A stretch of DNA of 31,959 bases from NCBI GenBank assembly GCA_013698285.1, contig JACCVE010000325.1, positions 1 through 31,959 on the forward strand. The letters are read 5' to 3'. This document shows, in pieces, positions 23,738-29,328 of this stretch; position 1 is the first letter of the stretch, and every line of letters starts with the position of its first letter. This DNA is from Chloroflexia bacterium (GTDB lineage: Bacteria; Chloroflexota; Chloroflexia; Thermomicrobiales; UBA6265). The position numbers were made by a program, and so were the translations under genes. Below the pieces are notes generated by a model. It made no database searches and was not told the origin of the DNA. It saw nothing but the letters and a program-made list of their open reading frames with translations.

Positions 23738-24136
23738 TCAGCCCTGCGCCGTCCAGCGATCAACCCGGATCGTGATCTTGTATCGGTGTTCGCCGTCGGC
23801 CCCGTGGGCGAAATCGGCGCCGGTGTACTTGCGGGCGAGGTGGTTCACCCAGGAAAGGTCCTTGAAGAGCTCGAAGGTGACCACTGACCCCCGGATCTCG
23901 AGGTAGCGATCGGGCCGCGCCGGATCAGAGATCGACATGGCCACGTCGGGATTGCCACGCAGGTTCCGGTACTTGGTGGTCTCGGGCTTGACGCTCAGGA
24001 GGACGTGTTCCCCGTCCCAAAAGAACCAGACCGGATTCACCTGGGGCGAACCGTTCCCATCGACCGTGGCCAGATGCCCGAGCACTCTGCTCTGGAGGAG
24101 ATCGCGGTAGCGTTCGGGGACCGGCCCTGCTGGCAT
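23738..24136 (-). CDS. PPOX-class (pyridoxamine 5'-phosphate oxidase-like) probable F420-dependent oxidoreductase
   Basis: GHLATVDGNGSPQVNPVWF, KYRNLRGNPDVAMSI, RYLEIRG, LARKYTG. SD GGGAG before ATG 24136. Confidence 0.88.
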   Translation of the reverse strand: MPAGPVPERYRDLLQSRVLGHLATVDGNGSPQVNPVWFFWDGEHVLLSVKPETTKYRNLRGNPDVAMSISDPARPDRYLEIRGSVVTFELFKDLSWVNHLARKYTGADFAHGADGEHRYKITIRVDRWTAQG

Positions 24137-24282
24137 ATGGTACTCCCGTTCTGGCCCGGGCCAGACTCGACGGTCGAACGAGCATTCGTTGACGTAGAGC
24201 GGGTCCAAACATCCCGCCACGTGCTGGCCATGGTACGTGACGGCCACTGGACGAGGTCGCATGGCATGATGCCCGGACCCGA

Positions 24283-25686
24283 TCAGGTCGATGTCACCGC
24301 CGTCGGATCGGGCCGGGGCGCCGTCCGGCTCCCGCCCGGTAGGCTCCTGACCTTGGTCGAGAAGGCGGCGGCGATCGCGCCGGTCGCCAGCGCGCTGGTC
24401 ACCAGGGCGACGCCGTACCCCGCCCCGTCGACGAGCTGGCCGAAGAGGACCGCACCGGTTGACTGGCCGAGGAAGAGGCAGAAGGCGAACAGGGCCACCG
24501 CCGTGCCGCGGGCCGTCGGGGCCAGTTCGGTCGCCTTGGTCTGCAGGGTGCTGTGGAACATGTAGAACCCGATCCCGGCCAGGAACACCAGGGGCGGGAG
24601 GAGTCGCCAGTCCGGCGAGACGGCAACCGCCACGTAGGCGACGGTGACGACCGAGCCGCCCAACCGGACCAGGCCCCGCTCGCCGAAGCGGGGCAACAGA
24701 CGGCCGACGAGCCGGGAGTAGACGAGCCCGCCGAGCCCGAAGCAGGCCAGGATCACCCCGATCGCGGCGTAGGCCAAGTTGAACCGGTCGCGCAGCGCGG
24801 CCCCCACGTACACGAAGCCGCCGAAGAAGCAGAGTCCCTCCAACAGCACGGTCGCCAGGACCACCTTGGCCGCGCGCTCGCGGACCACGGCCCGGTAGGG
24901 CGACGTCAGCGATGACAGGGTCAGGGGCTGACGGGCCGCCCGGGCCATGGACACGACGCGCGGCTGCCGTCGAACTGATCGGGAGAAGATCAGGCCCATC
25001 ACCAGGGCCGCCAGGCCGTAGACCAAGAAGATGACTCGCCAGCTCAGGAAGTCGGCCACGCTGGCCCCCAGGCTGGCGCCCAGGATCTGGCCCATCGCCA
25101 GCGCCGACAGGTACTGGCCCAGGGCGGCCTGGCGCCCGGCGTAGGGGACCGTGTCGCCGATGTGGGCCAGGGTGAGCGGGATCAGGGCGGCGGCGGCGAC
25201 GCCGGTGGCGAAGCGGAGGATGACCAGGACCGGCAAGGTCCCCGCCGCCGCGCAGGCCGCCGTACCCAGGGCGAAGCAGAGGATCGCCACCGCCATCACC
25301 CTCAGCTTGCCGACCCGGTCCCCGAGGGGGCCGTAGACGAGCTGGAACAGGCCGTAGGGCAGGGTATAGGCCGAGACGGTCAGGCCGGCCGCCGCGATGC
25401 TCGTCCCGAAGCGGTCGGCGATCACCGGCAGCAGCGGGTCGATCACCCGGGCGTCGGCGACGACCAAGAAGCCGAGGGCACCGAGGAGCCCGATCGAGAT
25501 CGGGTTGGTGCCCGGTCCCATGGTCTCGGCCGGAGGTGGCACGTCGGTTTCGACGGTGGACGACGGGCCCATCCCATGGTCGCCGGTTACCAACGCGGCC
25601 CCCGCTCCGAACGGTGAGGAGGGCCGCGTTGCGGTGGTAGTGCGGTCGTCGTCGTCCATCGCGAGGGTCCCGTTTCCGTCGTGCAC
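24283..25686 (-). CDS. Major facilitator superfamily transporter (drug/metabolite efflux-like)
   Basis: About 12 hydrophobic segments, MFS motif A GPLGDRVGKLRV, LLPVIADRFG, RGTAVALF. Start uncertain (25686 or ATG 25659); 25686 lies 8 bp after the serA stop. Confidence 0.88.
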   Translation of the reverse strand: MHDGNGTLAMDDDDRTTTATRPSSPFGAGAALVTGDHGMGPSSTVETDVPPPAETMGPGTNPISIGLLGALGFLVVADARVIDPLLPVIADRFGTSIAAAGLTVSAYTLPYGLFQLVYGPLGDRVGKLRVMAVAILCFALGTAACAAAGTLPVLVILRFATGVAAAALIPLTLAHIGDTVPYAGRQAALGQYLSALAMGQILGASLGASVADFLSWRVIFLVYGLAALVMGLIFSRSVRRQPRVVSMARAARQPLTLSSLTSPYRAVVRERAAKVVLATVLLEGLCFFGGFVYVGAALRDRFNLAYAAIGVILACFGLGGLVYSRLVGRLLPRFGERGLVRLGGSVVTVAYVAVAVSPDWRLLPPLVFLAGIGFYMFHSTLQTKATELAPTARGTAVALFAFCLFLGQSTGAVLFGQLVDGAGYGVALVTSALATGAIAAAFSTKVRSLPGGSRTAPRPDPTAVTST

Positions 25687-25693
25687 GCGCTCG

Positions 25694-27970
25694 TCAGGTG
25701 GCGAGAGCCGCCAGGTCGGGCGTCAGCACGGTGCGCGGGTCGGCCGGGGGCAGGGAGACGACGAAGGCGGTCGTCACGCCGGGCACGGTCAAAATGTCGC
25801 GCAGGGCGTCGACCGGGATCGGGTCATCGACGTTGGTGACCATGATGGCCTCGCCCCCCCGGGCGTGGCGACCGACCTGCATCCCAGCGATGTTCACGCC
25901 GTGGCGGCCCAGGATGGTGCCGAGGTACCCGATCACCCCCGGCTGGTCGACGTGGTGGGTGATCAGCACATCGCCGGCCAGGGCCCGCTCCAGCGAGAAG
26001 CGGTCGACCTCGGTGATCCCGGCCACGGACCGGTCCCAGGCCACGGTGACGCGGTGGGCCGGGTCGCCCTCTGTCTCCAGGGTGAAGGTGGGCACCCGGT
26101 CGGGATCGGCGTCGCCCTGGATGGTCGCGACGCGTACGTCGCACTCGGCTGCCACCAGAGCGGCATTGACCGGCGTCACCCTCCGGTCCGTCCAGCGGTG
26201 GAGCGCCTCGCTGAGGGCCGCGGCGAGGACGTGGTGGGCGACGTCCTCCGGCACCTGGCCGTCGATGACGAGCCGCACCCGGGCGGGGAGGACCGGTTCG
26301 AGGACGGCGAGCAGCTTGCCGGCCGCCCCGGCGATGGTGGTCAGCCGGCGTAGCGCCGGGGCTTCCAGCGACGCGGGCGGCAGGTTGACGGCATTGGGGA
26401 CGGCCTCCCCCCGCAGCGCGGCCAGCGTCGTGGTGCTGATAACCTGGCCGACCGCCGCGAGGGCCTCGGCGCTGGAGCCCCCGGTGTGCGGGGTGAGGAC
26501 CACGTTGGGCAGCCCGAACAGCGGGCTCGCCACGCAGGGCTCATGGGGGTAGACGTCGACCCCGGCCCCGGCCAGGCGGCCGTCGCGGAGGGCGTCGGCC
26601 AAGGCATTCTGGTCCACCACCTCGCCGCGGGCGCAGTTGAGGACGAAGGCGGTCGGCCGCATGGTGGCGATCGCCGCCGCGTCGAGCATGTGGGTGGTCT
26701 CGGCCGTCTGCGGGACGTGGAAGGTCACCACGTCGGAGCGGGCGAGGAGTTCCCCATAGCCGACGGGGGTGACACCGAGGTCGCGGAACCGGGCCGCGTC
26801 GATGTAGGGGTCGTGGCCGATCAGGTCCATCTCGAAGGCCCGCAGCCGGCGGGCGACGACCGTGCCGACGCGACCCAGGCCGACGATCCCGACCGTCCGG
26901 CCGCGCAGGTCGACCGCGGAAACCTTCTTCCGGGCCCATGCGCCGGCGTGGGTGGTGGCGTTGGCGAACGGGATCTGCCGGGTCAGGGCCAGCAGCAGGG
27001 AGATCGTGTGCTCGCCAGCCGAGACGGCGTTGGCTCCGGGAGCGTTGAGGACCAGCAGGCCCCGTGCCGTCGCCGCCGGGAGGTCGATATTATCGACGCC
27101 GACCCCGGCCCGGGTAATCACGCGCAAGTTCGACCCCGCGTCCATCACCTCCGGTGTGACTTGGGTCTCGGAGCGGACGACCAGCGCGTCGGCACGGGCC
27201 AGGACCGCGAGCAGGGCGGGCAGGTCGGTGCCATCGACGGTGATCAGGTCGGCCCCGGCAGCGAGCGTCGCGTGCGCAGTCGGGTCGATCGCGTCGCTGA
27301 TCACGATCGTCGGCCGGCGGTCCATTGGGTGGTCGCGATAGCCATTGGTCGCGACGGGTTCGAACGCGGCGGACATGGTACCGGTGGCAACCATTCTGGC
27401 CGCGGGGTCTGTCTCGGCTGCCAAGAGAGTATCGATCTCCTGGAGGGACCGCACGGGGCGGATGTTCTCCCCGTGCGGCCCATCGCCCGCTGCCAAGAGG
27501 AAGCAGGGGATCCCGGCGGCGGCGTAGGCCCGGGCATGGCGGGGACTGTCCTCGATGGCCCACCGGCAGCCGTGGGCCTGGGCCACGTTGACCTTGTCCT
27601 CGGTGAAGAAGACATTCACCGGGGGGAACCCGTGCTCGTGAAGCCAGGAGAGGGTCGGCTCGATCGATGCCGGGGGCCGGGCGGTGATGATCAGCACATT
27701 GTCGGGACCTGCTCGTTCGACGACCGAGCGGAGGAACTCGACGGCCCAATCGGCCTTGCGGAGCCGGCGGGCCGGACCACCCTCACCATAGACCCATTCC
27801 CGGACATCTTCGGAAACGTTGAGCCCGGCGCTGTCCACGAAGGCGCGCTCCGGCAGGTCGAGGCCGAAGTGGGCCGAGGCGGCGGTGGCCAGCGCGGCCG
27901 GGTACTCGGTGAGGACGCCATCGAGATCGACGGCGATCCTGCCCAGCGCGGAGAGGGGTGACGACGCCAC
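25694..27970 (-). CDS. serA: D-3-phosphoglycerate dehydrogenase (with ASB and ACT domains) fused to an N-terminal HAD/NT5C-like phosphatase domain
   Basis: PGDH motifs ITRAGVGVDNID, NAPGAN, GIVGLGRVG, NCARG (Arg), DVYPHEP (Glu), TPHTGG (His); ACT domain DQPGVIG..GTILG.HGVNIAGMQVGR. N-terminal DLDGVL...ITAR...EDK...IEDS. Start GTG 27970 (or ATG 27991/27994). Confidence 0.88.
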   Translation of the reverse strand: MASSPLSALGRIAVDLDGVLTEYPAALATAASAHFGLDLPERAFVDSAGLNVSEDVREWVYGEGGPARRLRKADWAVEFLRSVVERAGPDNVLIITARPPASIEPTLSWLHEHGFPPVNVFFTEDKVNVAQAHGCRWAIEDSPRHARAYAAAGIPCFLLAAGDGPHGENIRPVRSLQEIDTLLAAETDPAARMVATGTMSAAFEPVATNGYRDHPMDRRPTIVISDAIDPTAHATLAAGADLITVDGTDLPALLAVLARADALVVRSETQVTPEVMDAGSNLRVITRAGVGVDNIDLPAATARGLLVLNAPGANAVSAGEHTISLLLALTRQIPFANATTHAGAWARKKVSAVDLRGRTVGIVGLGRVGTVVARRLRAFEMDLIGHDPYIDAARFRDLGVTPVGYGELLARSDVVTFHVPQTAETTHMLDAAAIATMRPTAFVLNCARGEVVDQNALADALRDGRLAGAGVDVYPHEPCVASPLFGLPNVVLTPHTGGSSAEALAAVGQVISTTTLAALRGEAVPNAVNLPPASLEAPALRRLTTIAGAAGKLLAVLEPVLPARVRLVIDGQVPEDVAHHVLAAALSEALHRWTDRRVTPVNAALVAAECDVRVATIQGDADPDRVPTFTLETEGDPAHRVTVAWDRSVAGITEVDRFSLERALAGDVLITHHVDQPGVIGYLGTILGRHGVNIAGMQVGRHARGGEAIMVTNVDDPIPVDALRDILTVPGVTTAFVVSLPPADPRTVLTPDLAALAT

Positions 27971-28103
27971 GTGTGAACCCTTCGTAACCATCATCCGGCG
28001 CGAGGCCGGGTGACGGGGGTGAGCGACGTCATCGTCGGGACTGGGCCGCGGGTCGATCCGCCGCCGCCATGCCGCTTGGGGATGCCTTGACGGCGTTTGC
28101 TTG

Positions 28104-28133
28104 AGGGTAGCACCGCCTCCGGTCCGGTCGCAA
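28104..28133 (-). promoter_or_regulatory. Putative sigma70 promoter for serA
   Basis: Minus strand TTGCGA (28133-28128), 18 bp, TACCCT (28109-28104), with the extended -10 TGn present. Confidence 0.5.
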
Positions 28134-28198
28134 CGCGGCGGGGCCACCGGACGCCGACGGACTCCCAGAGTTCGCGCACAAACGGGCGCCGGGGAGGC

Positions 28199-29248
28199 TC
28201 AATACAGCGAGGTCATGTCCAGACGTGGCGCCATGTCGCCGGGCTGGTCGGCCAGGAAGTGGGCCATGTTGGCGATGAACCGGTCGGCCAGCAGCCCGTT
28301 CTCTGACGAGACCGTCGAGGCCGAGTGGGGGCTGATCAGGACGTTCGGCAGTGTCCACAGCGGGGAGTCGGGAGGCAGGGGTTCGACCGCGGTCACGTCG
28401 AGGGCGGCGAACCCGACTTGGCCTGAGCGGAGCGCCGCGACGAGGGCGGGCTCGTCGATCACCGCACCCCGGGCGATGTTGACCAGCACCGCGCCGGGCC
28501 GCATCGTCGCCAACTCCGCGGCGCCGATCATCCCGTCCGTCTCGTCGGTGTGGGGCATTGCCAGGACCAGGGCGTCGCAGCCGGCGAGCATGTCCCGAAG
28601 CCTGTCTGGCGGGAACACCCGGTCCACACCGAGTTCGGCCGCCCGTCCCGGCGCGTCGTGGCGGGCCACCGCGTGGACCCGCATCGAAAACGCGCGACCG
28701 AGGCGGGCGACCTCTCGTCCGATCCGGCCCGGCCCGACGATGCCGAGCGTCATCCCAGCCAGCGAGGCGCCGCAATGTCGTTCCCACCTGCGGGCGCGTT
28801 GTTCCTCGTCCAGGTGGCGAAATCGCTTGACGTGGGACAGGAGGGCGGCGAATGTCCATTCGGCGAGGGGAACCGCGTGGATTCCACTAGCGGTGGTGAC
28901 GATCACGCCGGTCTGGTCGAGGCCGAGGGTGCGGACGCGCCGGCCGACCCCGGCCGAGGTGGTCTGTACCCAGCGCAGGCCCGGGGAGAGGTCCAGCGGC
29001 CCCTCATCGCCGAGCGTCGCCAAGTCCAACGTCACCACCGCCGACCGCAGCAGGTCGCGCCAGCGCCGCTCCTGGTCCGGCGTGCGGCGCCACGCCGGGT
29101 CGCCGGTGTGGTCGGCGGTGAACCGGGGCGCCGGCACGAGGTCCGGGTCGTGCCGGATCTCGATGTCGCTGGGGAATGCTGCCGCGATGCGTTCGATGAG
29201 GTTCGCTTCCAGCGGGGAGGCGATCGCGACGCGGATCGGGTCGGGCAT
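28199..29248 (-). CDS. D-2-hydroxyacid dehydrogenase family protein
   Basis: WVQTTSAGV, GIVGPGRIG (NAD binding), LVNIARGAVID, LDVTAVEPLP, ISPHSAS. ATG 29248 after SD GAGG. Confidence 0.92.
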   Translation of the reverse strand: MPDPIRVAIASPLEANLIERIAAAFPSDIEIRHDPDLVPAPRFTADHTGDPAWRRTPDQERRWRDLLRSAVVTLDLATLGDEGPLDLSPGLRWVQTTSAGVGRRVRTLGLDQTGVIVTTASGIHAVPLAEWTFAALLSHVKRFRHLDEEQRARRWERHCGASLAGMTLGIVGPGRIGREVARLGRAFSMRVHAVARHDAPGRAAELGVDRVFPPDRLRDMLAGCDALVLAMPHTDETDGMIGAAELATMRPGAVLVNIARGAVIDEPALVAALRSGQVGFAALDVTAVEPLPPDSPLWTLPNVLISPHSASTVSSENGLLADRFIANMAHFLADQPGDMAPRLDMTSLY

Positions 29249-29328
29249 GGGCACCTCGTCGGTAGGTCGCGTGGGAACGTCCCCGGGCTCCGTCCGCCGG
29301 TCGCCGGGCAGGGCGCGGGAGTCGGCGG

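Follow-up and report, generated by a model that had tools for sequence, protein, structure and literature searches.

The window considered here is a 31,959-nt stretch of contig JACCVE010000325.1 from a Chloroflexia bacterium of the order Thermomicrobiales (assembly GCA_013698285.1). On its minus strand, at 25694–27970, it carries a single gene which, read as one open reading frame (ORF), encodes a 758-amino-acid protein made up of a HAD-superfamily phosphatase domain, a linker and SerA, the phosphoglycerate dehydrogenase (PGDH) of serine synthesis. We report this HAD–SerA protein as a new domain fusion and as a candidate non-orthologous phosphoserine phosphatase (PSP). We have hardly any doubt about the architecture itself: the only type I SerA of the organism is joined, through a disordered linker, to a catalytically intact HAD domain. 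The features of the gene are given below. Residue numbers, here and throughout, follow a version of the protein (P0001) that runs from an ATG at 27994 and is 766 residues long.

25694–27970, minus strand: the whole HAD–linker–SerA fusion gene, an ORF with a GTG start at 27970 and its stop codon at 25694–25696.
27978–27983, minus strand: a putative Shine–Dalgarno-like motif, GAAGGG, 7 nt 5′ of the GTG start, proposed from our reading of the sequence.
27419–27940, minus strand: the NT5C-type HAD phosphatase domain, residues 19–192, delimited by PF06941, an AlphaFold2 model, fold matches and a profile comparison with the PDB.
27908–27928, minus strand: HAD motif I, D23-L-D25-G-V-L-T29, with the nucleophile Asp and the general acid/base Asp; all of the 117 fused homologues have D23, D25, G26, V27 and T29.
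27755–27907, minus strand: the cap, residues 30–80, inserted between motifs I and II, with a signature that is fixed in the fused proteins but varies among unfused NT5C relatives.
27677–27685, minus strand: HAD motif II, T104-A-R106, 100% conserved, with the Thr and Arg common to unfused relatives.
27593–27595, minus strand: HAD motif III, K134, 100% conserved.
27545–27553, minus strand: HAD motif IV, E148-D149-S150 (Mg2+ ligands), 100% conserved.
27314–27418, minus strand: the low-complexity inter-domain linker, residues 193–227, with model confidence (pLDDT) below 50 and a length that varies among homologues; contigs cross it without an indel.
26360–27313, minus strand: the substrate-binding and NAD-binding domains of PGDH, residues 228–545, from PF00389, PF02826, TIGR01327 and alignment with the Mycobacterium tuberculosis PGDH.
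25985–26359, minus strand: the ASB (intervening) domain, about residues 546–670 with approximate boundaries, from TIGR01327 and the alignment with 1ygy/3ddn.
25751–25984, minus strand: the C-terminal ACT regulatory domain, about residues 671–748, from PF01842 and alignment with the ACT domain of the M. tuberculosis PGDH.

The C-terminal 540 residues align end to end with the type I PGDH of M. tuberculosis (1ygy/3ddn; E = 2e-95). The catalytic Arg, Glu and His of D-2-hydroxyacid dehydrogenases are present, in ARG, HEP and TPH motifs that align with those of the M. tuberculosis enzyme. The Pfam models 2-Hacid_dh (PF00389), 2-Hacid_dh_C (PF02826) and ACT (PF01842; 36.8 bits against a cut-off of 27) are each matched above cut-off, as is the NCBIfam equivalog model for PGDH, TIGR01327 (475.6 bits against a cut-off of 454, residues 230–748, model positions 2–525; 477.1 bits for the fusion in a scan of its own genome). 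The Pfam model PGDH_inter reaches 17.2 bits, under its cut-off of 27; the ASB region nonetheless aligns to 1ygy/3ddn. In other type I SerA proteins, serine is sensed by the ACT fold.

At the other end of the protein, the Pfam model NT5C (PF06941) matches residues 20–191 by a marginal pass (25.1 bits against a cut-off of 24.8), and the HAD motifs read DLDGVL (23–28), IITAR (102–106), EDK (132–134) and IEDS (147–150). The linker is about 30 residues long here; across 70 homologues it spans 16–35 residues and is rich in Ala, Gly, Pro, Thr and Ser. In an AlphaFold2 model of the full-length protein the linker has a pLDDT below 50, and the predicted template-modelling score (pTM) is 0.53. A complex prediction for the HAD domain and the PGDH core scored 0.00, which bears on neither side of the interpretation discussed below. 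The first-pass annotation of this DNA had the architecture right: an uninterrupted frame in which a domain bearing all four HAD motifs is joined by an Ala/Thr-rich linker to a complete type I PGDH, ASB and ACT domains included.

It had also placed the start codon at 27970, and GTG 27970 is almost certainly the real start, which gives the product its 758 residues, because the homologue alignment, the GAAGGG upstream and a strain indel at 27986 all point to it. On the minus strand the frame is open from 28147 down to its stop codon at 25694. The start-site and conservation figures given here come from aligning 117 full-length homologues; residues 1–8 of P0001 are gaps in more than 93% of the sequences and almost none of the homologues reaches further upstream; position 9, which corresponds to the GTG, is Met in 55%. 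Contigs from three other sequencing runs (X1, X3 and X4) have a 1-nt deletion relative to the window at 27986, between the upstream ATGs and the GTG. With this deletion both upstream ATGs lose the frame, and the frame from the GTG stays intact. The deletion is strain variation, and it helps to fix the true start codon.

Because the window comes from a fragmented metagenome-assembled genome (MAG; 632 contigs, 81.7% complete), an artefactual join had to be excluded. Two adjacent genes might have been joined by a sequencing error, or PGDH might be made from an internal start. The fragmentation of the MAG lends some colour to this explanation, as do four related genomes in which the gene is split over two or three frames (L026, G027:C24, 4977–7207; G065:C22; G085:C7; G120:C14); these frameshifted copies could be sequencing errors or pseudogenes. 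However, more than 100 genomes have the same continuous frame, some of them closed or near-closed assemblies that consist of only one or two contigs (G003, G033, G034 and G041). Moreover, the linker, which had been singled out for a check of the reads (about 27320–27420), is spanned without an indel by contigs of other studies (X1 record 8, 26778–28200; X3 record 20, 27228–27587). The alternative that PGDH starts at an internal Met near 27335, named at the outset as a finding that would undo the fusion, fares no better: M224 (about 27325) is not conserved in the homologues, and the commonest residue at that position is Ala, in 20% of the 117. Given the order-wide frame, the independent contigs and the unconserved M224, we rejected both an assembly artefact and an internal start, to which together we give next to no credence.

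Of 151 Thermomicrobiales genomes, 118 encode the HAD domain (77 of the 83 high-quality ones), almost always inside frames of about 750–800 residues. By family (anonymized here as f1 to f5), it occurs in 59 of 66 genomes of f1, 18 of 20 of f3 and 40 of 45 of f4, and it was not found in f2 (0 of 7) or f5 (0 of 12). The samples include unpublished genomes (G095 in the scans for the HAD domain, PGDH and DUF1015; G035 in the scan for SerB), each of which shifts a tally by at most one; none of the conclusions rests on them. When the N-terminal 215 residues were used as a query with a whole-protein length window, we recovered 276 clusters (90% identity) that also contain PGDH and ACT domains. Nearly all of these are 740–790 residues long, and those that have a name are called ‘phosphoglycerate dehydrogenase [Thermomicrobiales bacterium]’.

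The fusion is the sole PGDH above cut-off in its own genome, and one per genome is the rule among the relatives. A parallel scan with the PGDH model showed that a full-length type I SerA in f1, f3 and f4 nearly always carries the HAD domain. The SerA of f2 is unfused (586–619 bits, in frames of 552–727 residues); fused SerA proteins score 475–537 bits. Two f1 genomes without a HAD match (G079 and G117) are also without any PGDH match, and the whole gene is therefore absent from those assemblies. In f5, neither a type I PGDH nor the HAD domain was found in the 12 genomes searched, and PspA-like histidine phosphatases occur in all 5 of its high-quality genomes.

The pairwise divergences of the two parts of the protein co-vary (r = 0.82), and the mean identities of 59% for the HAD part and 66% for the PGDH part reflect similar constraint. 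In the simplest history, the fusion would have arisen once, long ago, and then passed vertically through three Thermomicrobiales families. One genome (G052) shows a natural fission, where a HAD gene of 178 residues overlaps by 4 nt the serA of 537 residues that follows it and starts with GTG (L025, G052:C10, 5167–7313, minus strand). This overlap of stop and start suggests translational coupling, for which it is the classical layout. The fission indicates that the halves can work as separate polypeptides, yet they are kept together.

Within the HAD domain, D23, D25, G26, T29, T104, R106, K134, E148 and D149 are invariant in the 117 homologues. With every HAD catalytic residue invariant, phosphatase activity of the domain is very probable. 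One might instead picture a non-catalytic module for regulation or oligomerization, a pseudo-phosphatase that binds a phospho-ligand and so modulates PGDH; SerA is heavily regulated by allostery, the ASB domain of type I PGDH binds an anion or substrate, and NT5C proteins are dimers. However, pseudo-enzymes usually lose their catalytic residues, whereas the nucleophile, the acid/base Asp, the Thr, the Lys and the Mg2+ ligands are all retained here across 117 sequences that share about 59% mean identity. No interface between the domains is predicted either, and we consider a non-catalytic module very improbable.

What kind of phosphatase this may be is addressed by structure and by distant relatives. 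The AlphaFold2 model of the HAD domain (pLDDT 92.7) has a Rossmannoid core with a cap. A fold search of the PDB gave 59 matches at E ≤ 1e-3, of which the best 50 are all of the HAD fold; the best are the deoxyribonucleotidase-like 3bwv and human mdN and cdN, and the best Swiss-Prot matches are YqfW-type putative nucleotidases. A profile built from the clade and its relatives matched the PDB sequence of 3bwv at E = 2e-14 and those of cdN and mdN at about 1e-9 to 1e-11. No PSP was found among the best 50 PDB or the best 30 Swiss-Prot fold matches, and an NCBIfam scan of residues 1–215 returned no family at E ≤ 0.1, including the SerB model TIGR00338. The Pfam, fold and profile matches thus agree with the first-pass annotation, which had called the cap 5′(3′)-nucleotidase-like rather than SerB-like.

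In a search of 1.84 billion representative proteins, 12 matches fell below 1e-30, mostly fragments of the fusion, and were followed by a gap. Beyond the gap lie unfused proteins of about 190 residues and 30–37% identity, which are NT5C proteins, some of them fused to dUTPase_2. The two nearest unfused relatives (P0143 and P0148; loci L161–L168) are in phage genomes, where their neighbours are genes for terminase, portal, ClpP-type protease and dGTP-diphosphohydrolase; this gene context says nothing about serine. There are hints here of a phage or nucleotidase origin of the domain.

The fused clade also has features of its own. About 20 residues are invariant in it and variable in the unfused relatives. 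These are T29, P32, F43, P48, F52, D54, S55, G57, L58, V60, R65, W67, V68, Y69, G73, P74 and A75 in the cap, and S150, R152 and H153 after motif IV, where they form an EDSxRH extension. N59, too, is invariant. In mdN, residues F49, F75, W76, W96 and F102 are presumably those that stack on the base, and their identities and numbering fit the mdN sequence in our profile alignment. That alignment, which has low confidence in the cap, pairs them with H/Y31, R50, F52, Y69 and A75, so that two or three of the aromatics are kept (F52, Y69 and H/Y31) and two are lost (R50 and A75). This mixed pattern, in a cap that selects the substrate, suggests that the substrate may have changed.

These comparisons bear directly on the possibility that the domain is still a 5′(3′)-nucleotidase, joined to SerA for the co-regulation of nucleotide-pool turnover with serine and one-carbon supply or by historical accident. 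Such an enzyme would account for the NT5C Pfam match, for the NT5C- and YqfW-type folds at the top of the PDB and Swiss-Prot matches, for the profile E values and for the phage NT5C genes and dUTPase–NT5C fusions found at 30–37% identity. The aromatics kept at the positions of mdN W76 and W96 (F52 and Y69) would be explained as well. It would leave unexplained why about 20 invariant cap residues set the fused clade apart, why two of the mdN aromatics have become Arg and Ala, and why the fusion is held in three families with a single fission that is still coupled. Identity to nucleotidases of solved structure is only 14–22%, and we know of no metabolic reason for tying a nucleotidase to SerA. 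We therefore regard a retained nucleotidase function as rather unlikely.

The serine pathway of these bacteria appears to have a gap at the step that SerB catalyses. Canonical SerB (TIGR00338) is above cut-off in none of the 151 genomes of the order, and the genome of the window has no match to it; a check of that genome for serB had been proposed at the outset, and it came back empty both there and, above cut-off, order-wide. A 2026 GapMind study could still assign no serB in 8% of prototrophs and reports that unrelated phosphatase families fill the step; it also describes two further proposed replacements for SerB, the DUF1015 protein ‘SerBK’ and an IMPase-like enzyme (PMC13759103).

We looked for such replacements in Thermomicrobiales. 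DUF1015 was not found in the genome of the window or in a two-contig relative (G034); among genomes that are at least 90% complete, it occurs in 29 of 31 in f4, 10 of 45 in f1 and 3 of 12 in f3. The PspA equivalog is above cut-off in 0 of 97 genomes, at a cut-off so strict that no control genome passes it. PspA-like matches at E ≤ 1e-25 occur in 7 of 45 genomes of f1, 6 of 31 of f4 and 5 of 5 of f5. Among the high-quality f1 genomes, the 10 of 45 with DUF1015 and the 7 of 45 with a PspA-like protein do not overlap. This leaves 28 of 45 without SerB, DUF1015 or a strong PspA-like protein, and nearly all have the fusion. The genome of the window likewise has none of SerB, DUF1015/SerBK and the PspA equivalog. 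That 28 of 45 genomes have none of the three is real but circumstantial support for a phosphatase of the pathway in the fusion.

As a separate observation, in three genomes of one genus (g13; G127:C7, G089:C1 and G109:C28) a DUF1015 gene lies about 6 kb upstream of the HAD–SerA gene, on the opposite strand; elsewhere the two are unlinked.

The amination step is represented by a conserved class V aminotransferase of the SGAT/AGXT or ‘serine aminotransferase’ type, which in the genome of the window is on contig C103 and has 2dr1 as its best PDB match. Depending on the organism, enzymes of this kind can act on either phosphohydroxypyruvate or hydroxypyruvate as the amino acceptor. As the search for SerC yielded only this SGAT/AGXT-like enzyme, the phosphoserine and hydroxypyruvate routes are not told apart.

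This leaves room for an enzyme that acts on some other small phospho-metabolite, such as 3-phosphoglycerate (in a non-phosphorylated route via glycerate and hydroxypyruvate), a damaged or side-product metabolite, pyridoxal phosphate or a sugar phosphate. HAD specificity is notoriously plastic, and the invariant catalytic residues, together with a clade-specific cap, imply that the substrate is probably not the ancestral one. An SGAT/AGXT-type aminotransferase in place of a canonical SerC would fit as well, and enzymes of this type often use hydroxypyruvate. On the other hand, the dehydrogenase scores above the cut-off of the PGDH equivalog and has retained its type I architecture, which points to 3-phosphoglycerate rather than glycerate as its substrate, and nothing in the data favours any particular alternative for the phosphatase. 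A substrate outside the phosphorylated serine pathway is a minority possibility in our assessment.

We propose that the phosphatase domain may have been recruited from a nucleotidase lineage and re-specialized, as its own invariant cap signature suggests, and that it would now serve the serine pathway. In the first of two possible routes, 3-phosphoglycerate would be converted to 3-phosphohydroxypyruvate, then to phosphoserine and then to serine, with the HAD domain as a PSP that replaces SerB. In the second, 3-phosphoglycerate would be converted to 3-phosphohydroxypyruvate, then to hydroxypyruvate and then to serine. Here the HAD domain would act on the product of PGDH and feed the SGAT/AGXT-type class V aminotransferase; such a route would join consecutive steps and pull the unfavourable equilibrium of the dehydrogenase. 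We rate the first route above the second because it needs no unprecedented reaction. The fusion would hold an irreversible removal of phosphate at 1:1 stoichiometry, and in co-regulation, with the unfavourable first step.

We put the chance that the domain is a phosphatase of the serine pathway, acting on phosphoserine or on 3-phosphohydroxypyruvate, at about even. Phosphoserine is a tentative choice of substrate, somewhat short of an even bet, and 3-phosphohydroxypyruvate is an unlikely one. The fuller reading, that this NT5C-like domain is an unrecognized class of phosphoserine phosphatase, or a 3-phosphohydroxypyruvate phosphatase of a hybrid route to serine, possibly a phage-derived nucleotidase that was joined to SerA and fills the SerB step, falls just below the midpoint of our confidence. 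On this reading Thermomicrobiales would have a bifunctional enzyme for the first step and the removal of phosphate. The first-pass annotation had raised a non-canonical PSP; as a proposal this stays plausible, with circumstantial support from an ancient, order-wide fusion that is the sole type I SerA, from the invariant catalytic residues and the cap signature, from the absence of SerB in 151 genomes and from the 28 of 45 genomes described above, but it is not shown.

Several observations weigh against a role for the domain in the serine pathway. By sequence and by fold it is closest to NT5C nucleotidases, its nearest unfused relatives are encoded by phages, and its nearest matches by language-model features in the ESM Atlas are also NT5C clusters. 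A substrate cannot be assigned from sequence or fold, and the full-length AlphaFold2 model (pTM 0.53) predicts no fixed interface between the HAD domain and PGDH. SerB is above cut-off in only 2 of 201 genomes phylum-wide, and those that lack it include the fusion-less families f2 and f5. With SerB this rare across the phylum, its absence cannot be tied specifically to the fusion. A complementary distribution of fusion and SerB, which we considered, is accordingly uninformative, as SerB is absent even in f2 and f5.

Family f4 is a further difficulty, as 29 of its 31 genomes hold both DUF1015 and the fusion. If DUF1015 supplies the step in f4, the HAD domain is redundant there. The conflict would be lifted if DUF1015 in f4 serves serine catabolism instead, a possible role raised by the GapMind authors (PMC13759103). 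The genome of the window does encode a histidine-phosphatase-family protein, which reaches 73 bits with the PspA model against a cut-off of 350; we rejected it as a PspA-type PSP, because it is CobC-like (CobC is its best match) and far below the PspA cut-off. This genome is only 81.7% complete. An IMPase-type PSP may also exist. Finally, no canonical SerC (TIGR01364 or TIGR01366) is above cut-off in the five genomes scanned, and six-frame ORF clustering of 64 loci found neither serC nor any other serine gene as a conserved neighbour of the fusion.

No neighbour of the fusion is common to more than 16 of the 64 related loci; the only genes that recur locally encode an M24 peptidase and, within this genus, a paralogue of 2-hydroxyacid dehydrogenase. 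In the window, this paralogue is a D-2-hydroxyacid dehydrogenase of 351 residues (28199–29254, minus strand), directly upstream of the fusion and on the same strand. It matches 2-Hacid_dh_C only, its nearest model (NF041369) is below cut-off, and it adjoins the fusion only in the closest relatives (L010 and L014), not across the order. On the other side, an ORF for an MFS transporter (24283–25686, minus strand) starts no more than 8 nt past the stop codon of serA, and the next gene encodes a PNPOx-family protein (23738–24262, minus strand). The two may be co-transcribed with serA here; the MFS gene is unmatched in the 15 related loci compared.

Full-text literature searches, and the main texts of GapMind 2020 and 2026, yielded no description of a HAD–SerA fusion. 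The proteins themselves are already in public databases as plain ‘phosphoglycerate dehydrogenase’. The step in question matters for genome interpretation: PSP is among the steps most often missing in genome-based reconstructions of amino-acid synthesis, and such gaps inflate predictions of auxotrophy for uncultured bacteria. Thermomicrobiales, which are abundant in soils, deserts and hot environments, are without canonical SerB yet keep a complete, ACT-bearing SerA. Because covalent fusion is the strongest form of genomic-context evidence, the HAD domain offers a concrete and cheaply testable candidate gene. If the proposal is right, it would represent a fourth or fifth independent origin of PSP activity and a nucleotidase scaffold repurposed for amino-acid metabolism. 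It would also improve the annotation of several hundred proteins that are labelled only as phosphoglycerate dehydrogenase, and would be a natural case in which an irreversible phosphatase is coupled to an unfavourable dehydrogenase reaction. Should the domain turn out to be a nucleotidase, the fusion would be a curiosity.

Compared with known members of the NT5C family (human mdN and cdN, YqfW-type proteins of Bacillus, 3bwv of Staphylococcus epidermidis and phage NT5C), the domain has the same Rossmannoid HAD core with a helical cap straight after motif I, and the same DxDGVL in motif I, Thr in motif II, Lys in motif III and acidic motif IV. It differs in its 14–22% identity to solved or reviewed members, in a score barely over the Pfam threshold, and in its own cap signature and EDSxRH extension. 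It differs also in being fused to SerA, as no other NT5C protein is in these searches. With SerB (TIGR00338; Escherichia coli SerB, Methanocaldococcus jannaschii PSP and M. tuberculosis SerB2 with its ACT domains) it shares the HAD superfamily, the Asp nucleophile, Mg2+ and a helical cap, and the reaction of SerB is the one proposed here, in the pathway of the SerA to which the domain is fused. SerB belongs to a different HAD subfamily (HAD-IB), however; the domain does not match TIGR00338, and SerB is not among its top fold matches. If the domain is a PSP, its origin would be convergent, a case of non-orthologous displacement.

The dehydrogenase part has the substrate-binding, NAD-binding, ASB and ACT domains of type I PGDH (M. 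tuberculosis SerA1, 1ygy/3ddn) and its catalytic motifs. To these the fusion adds an N-terminal domain of about 190 residues and a linker, and it scores below the unfused SerA of f2. The oomycete SerA–SerC bifunctional protein is a precedent for SerA joined to an enzyme of the same pathway (PMC2705460); its partner is an aminotransferase, not a phosphatase, and it comes from another kingdom. DUF1015 ‘SerBK’, the IMPase-like PSP and PspA (PDB 4ij5, Hydrogenobacter thermophilus) follow the same logic as our candidate, in that an unrelated family fills the SerB gap and is recognized by its linkage to serA. These replacements have unrelated folds and genetic or biochemical support (PMC13759103), whereas the HAD–SerA protein is known from sequence and is linked to serA not by an operon but by fusion.

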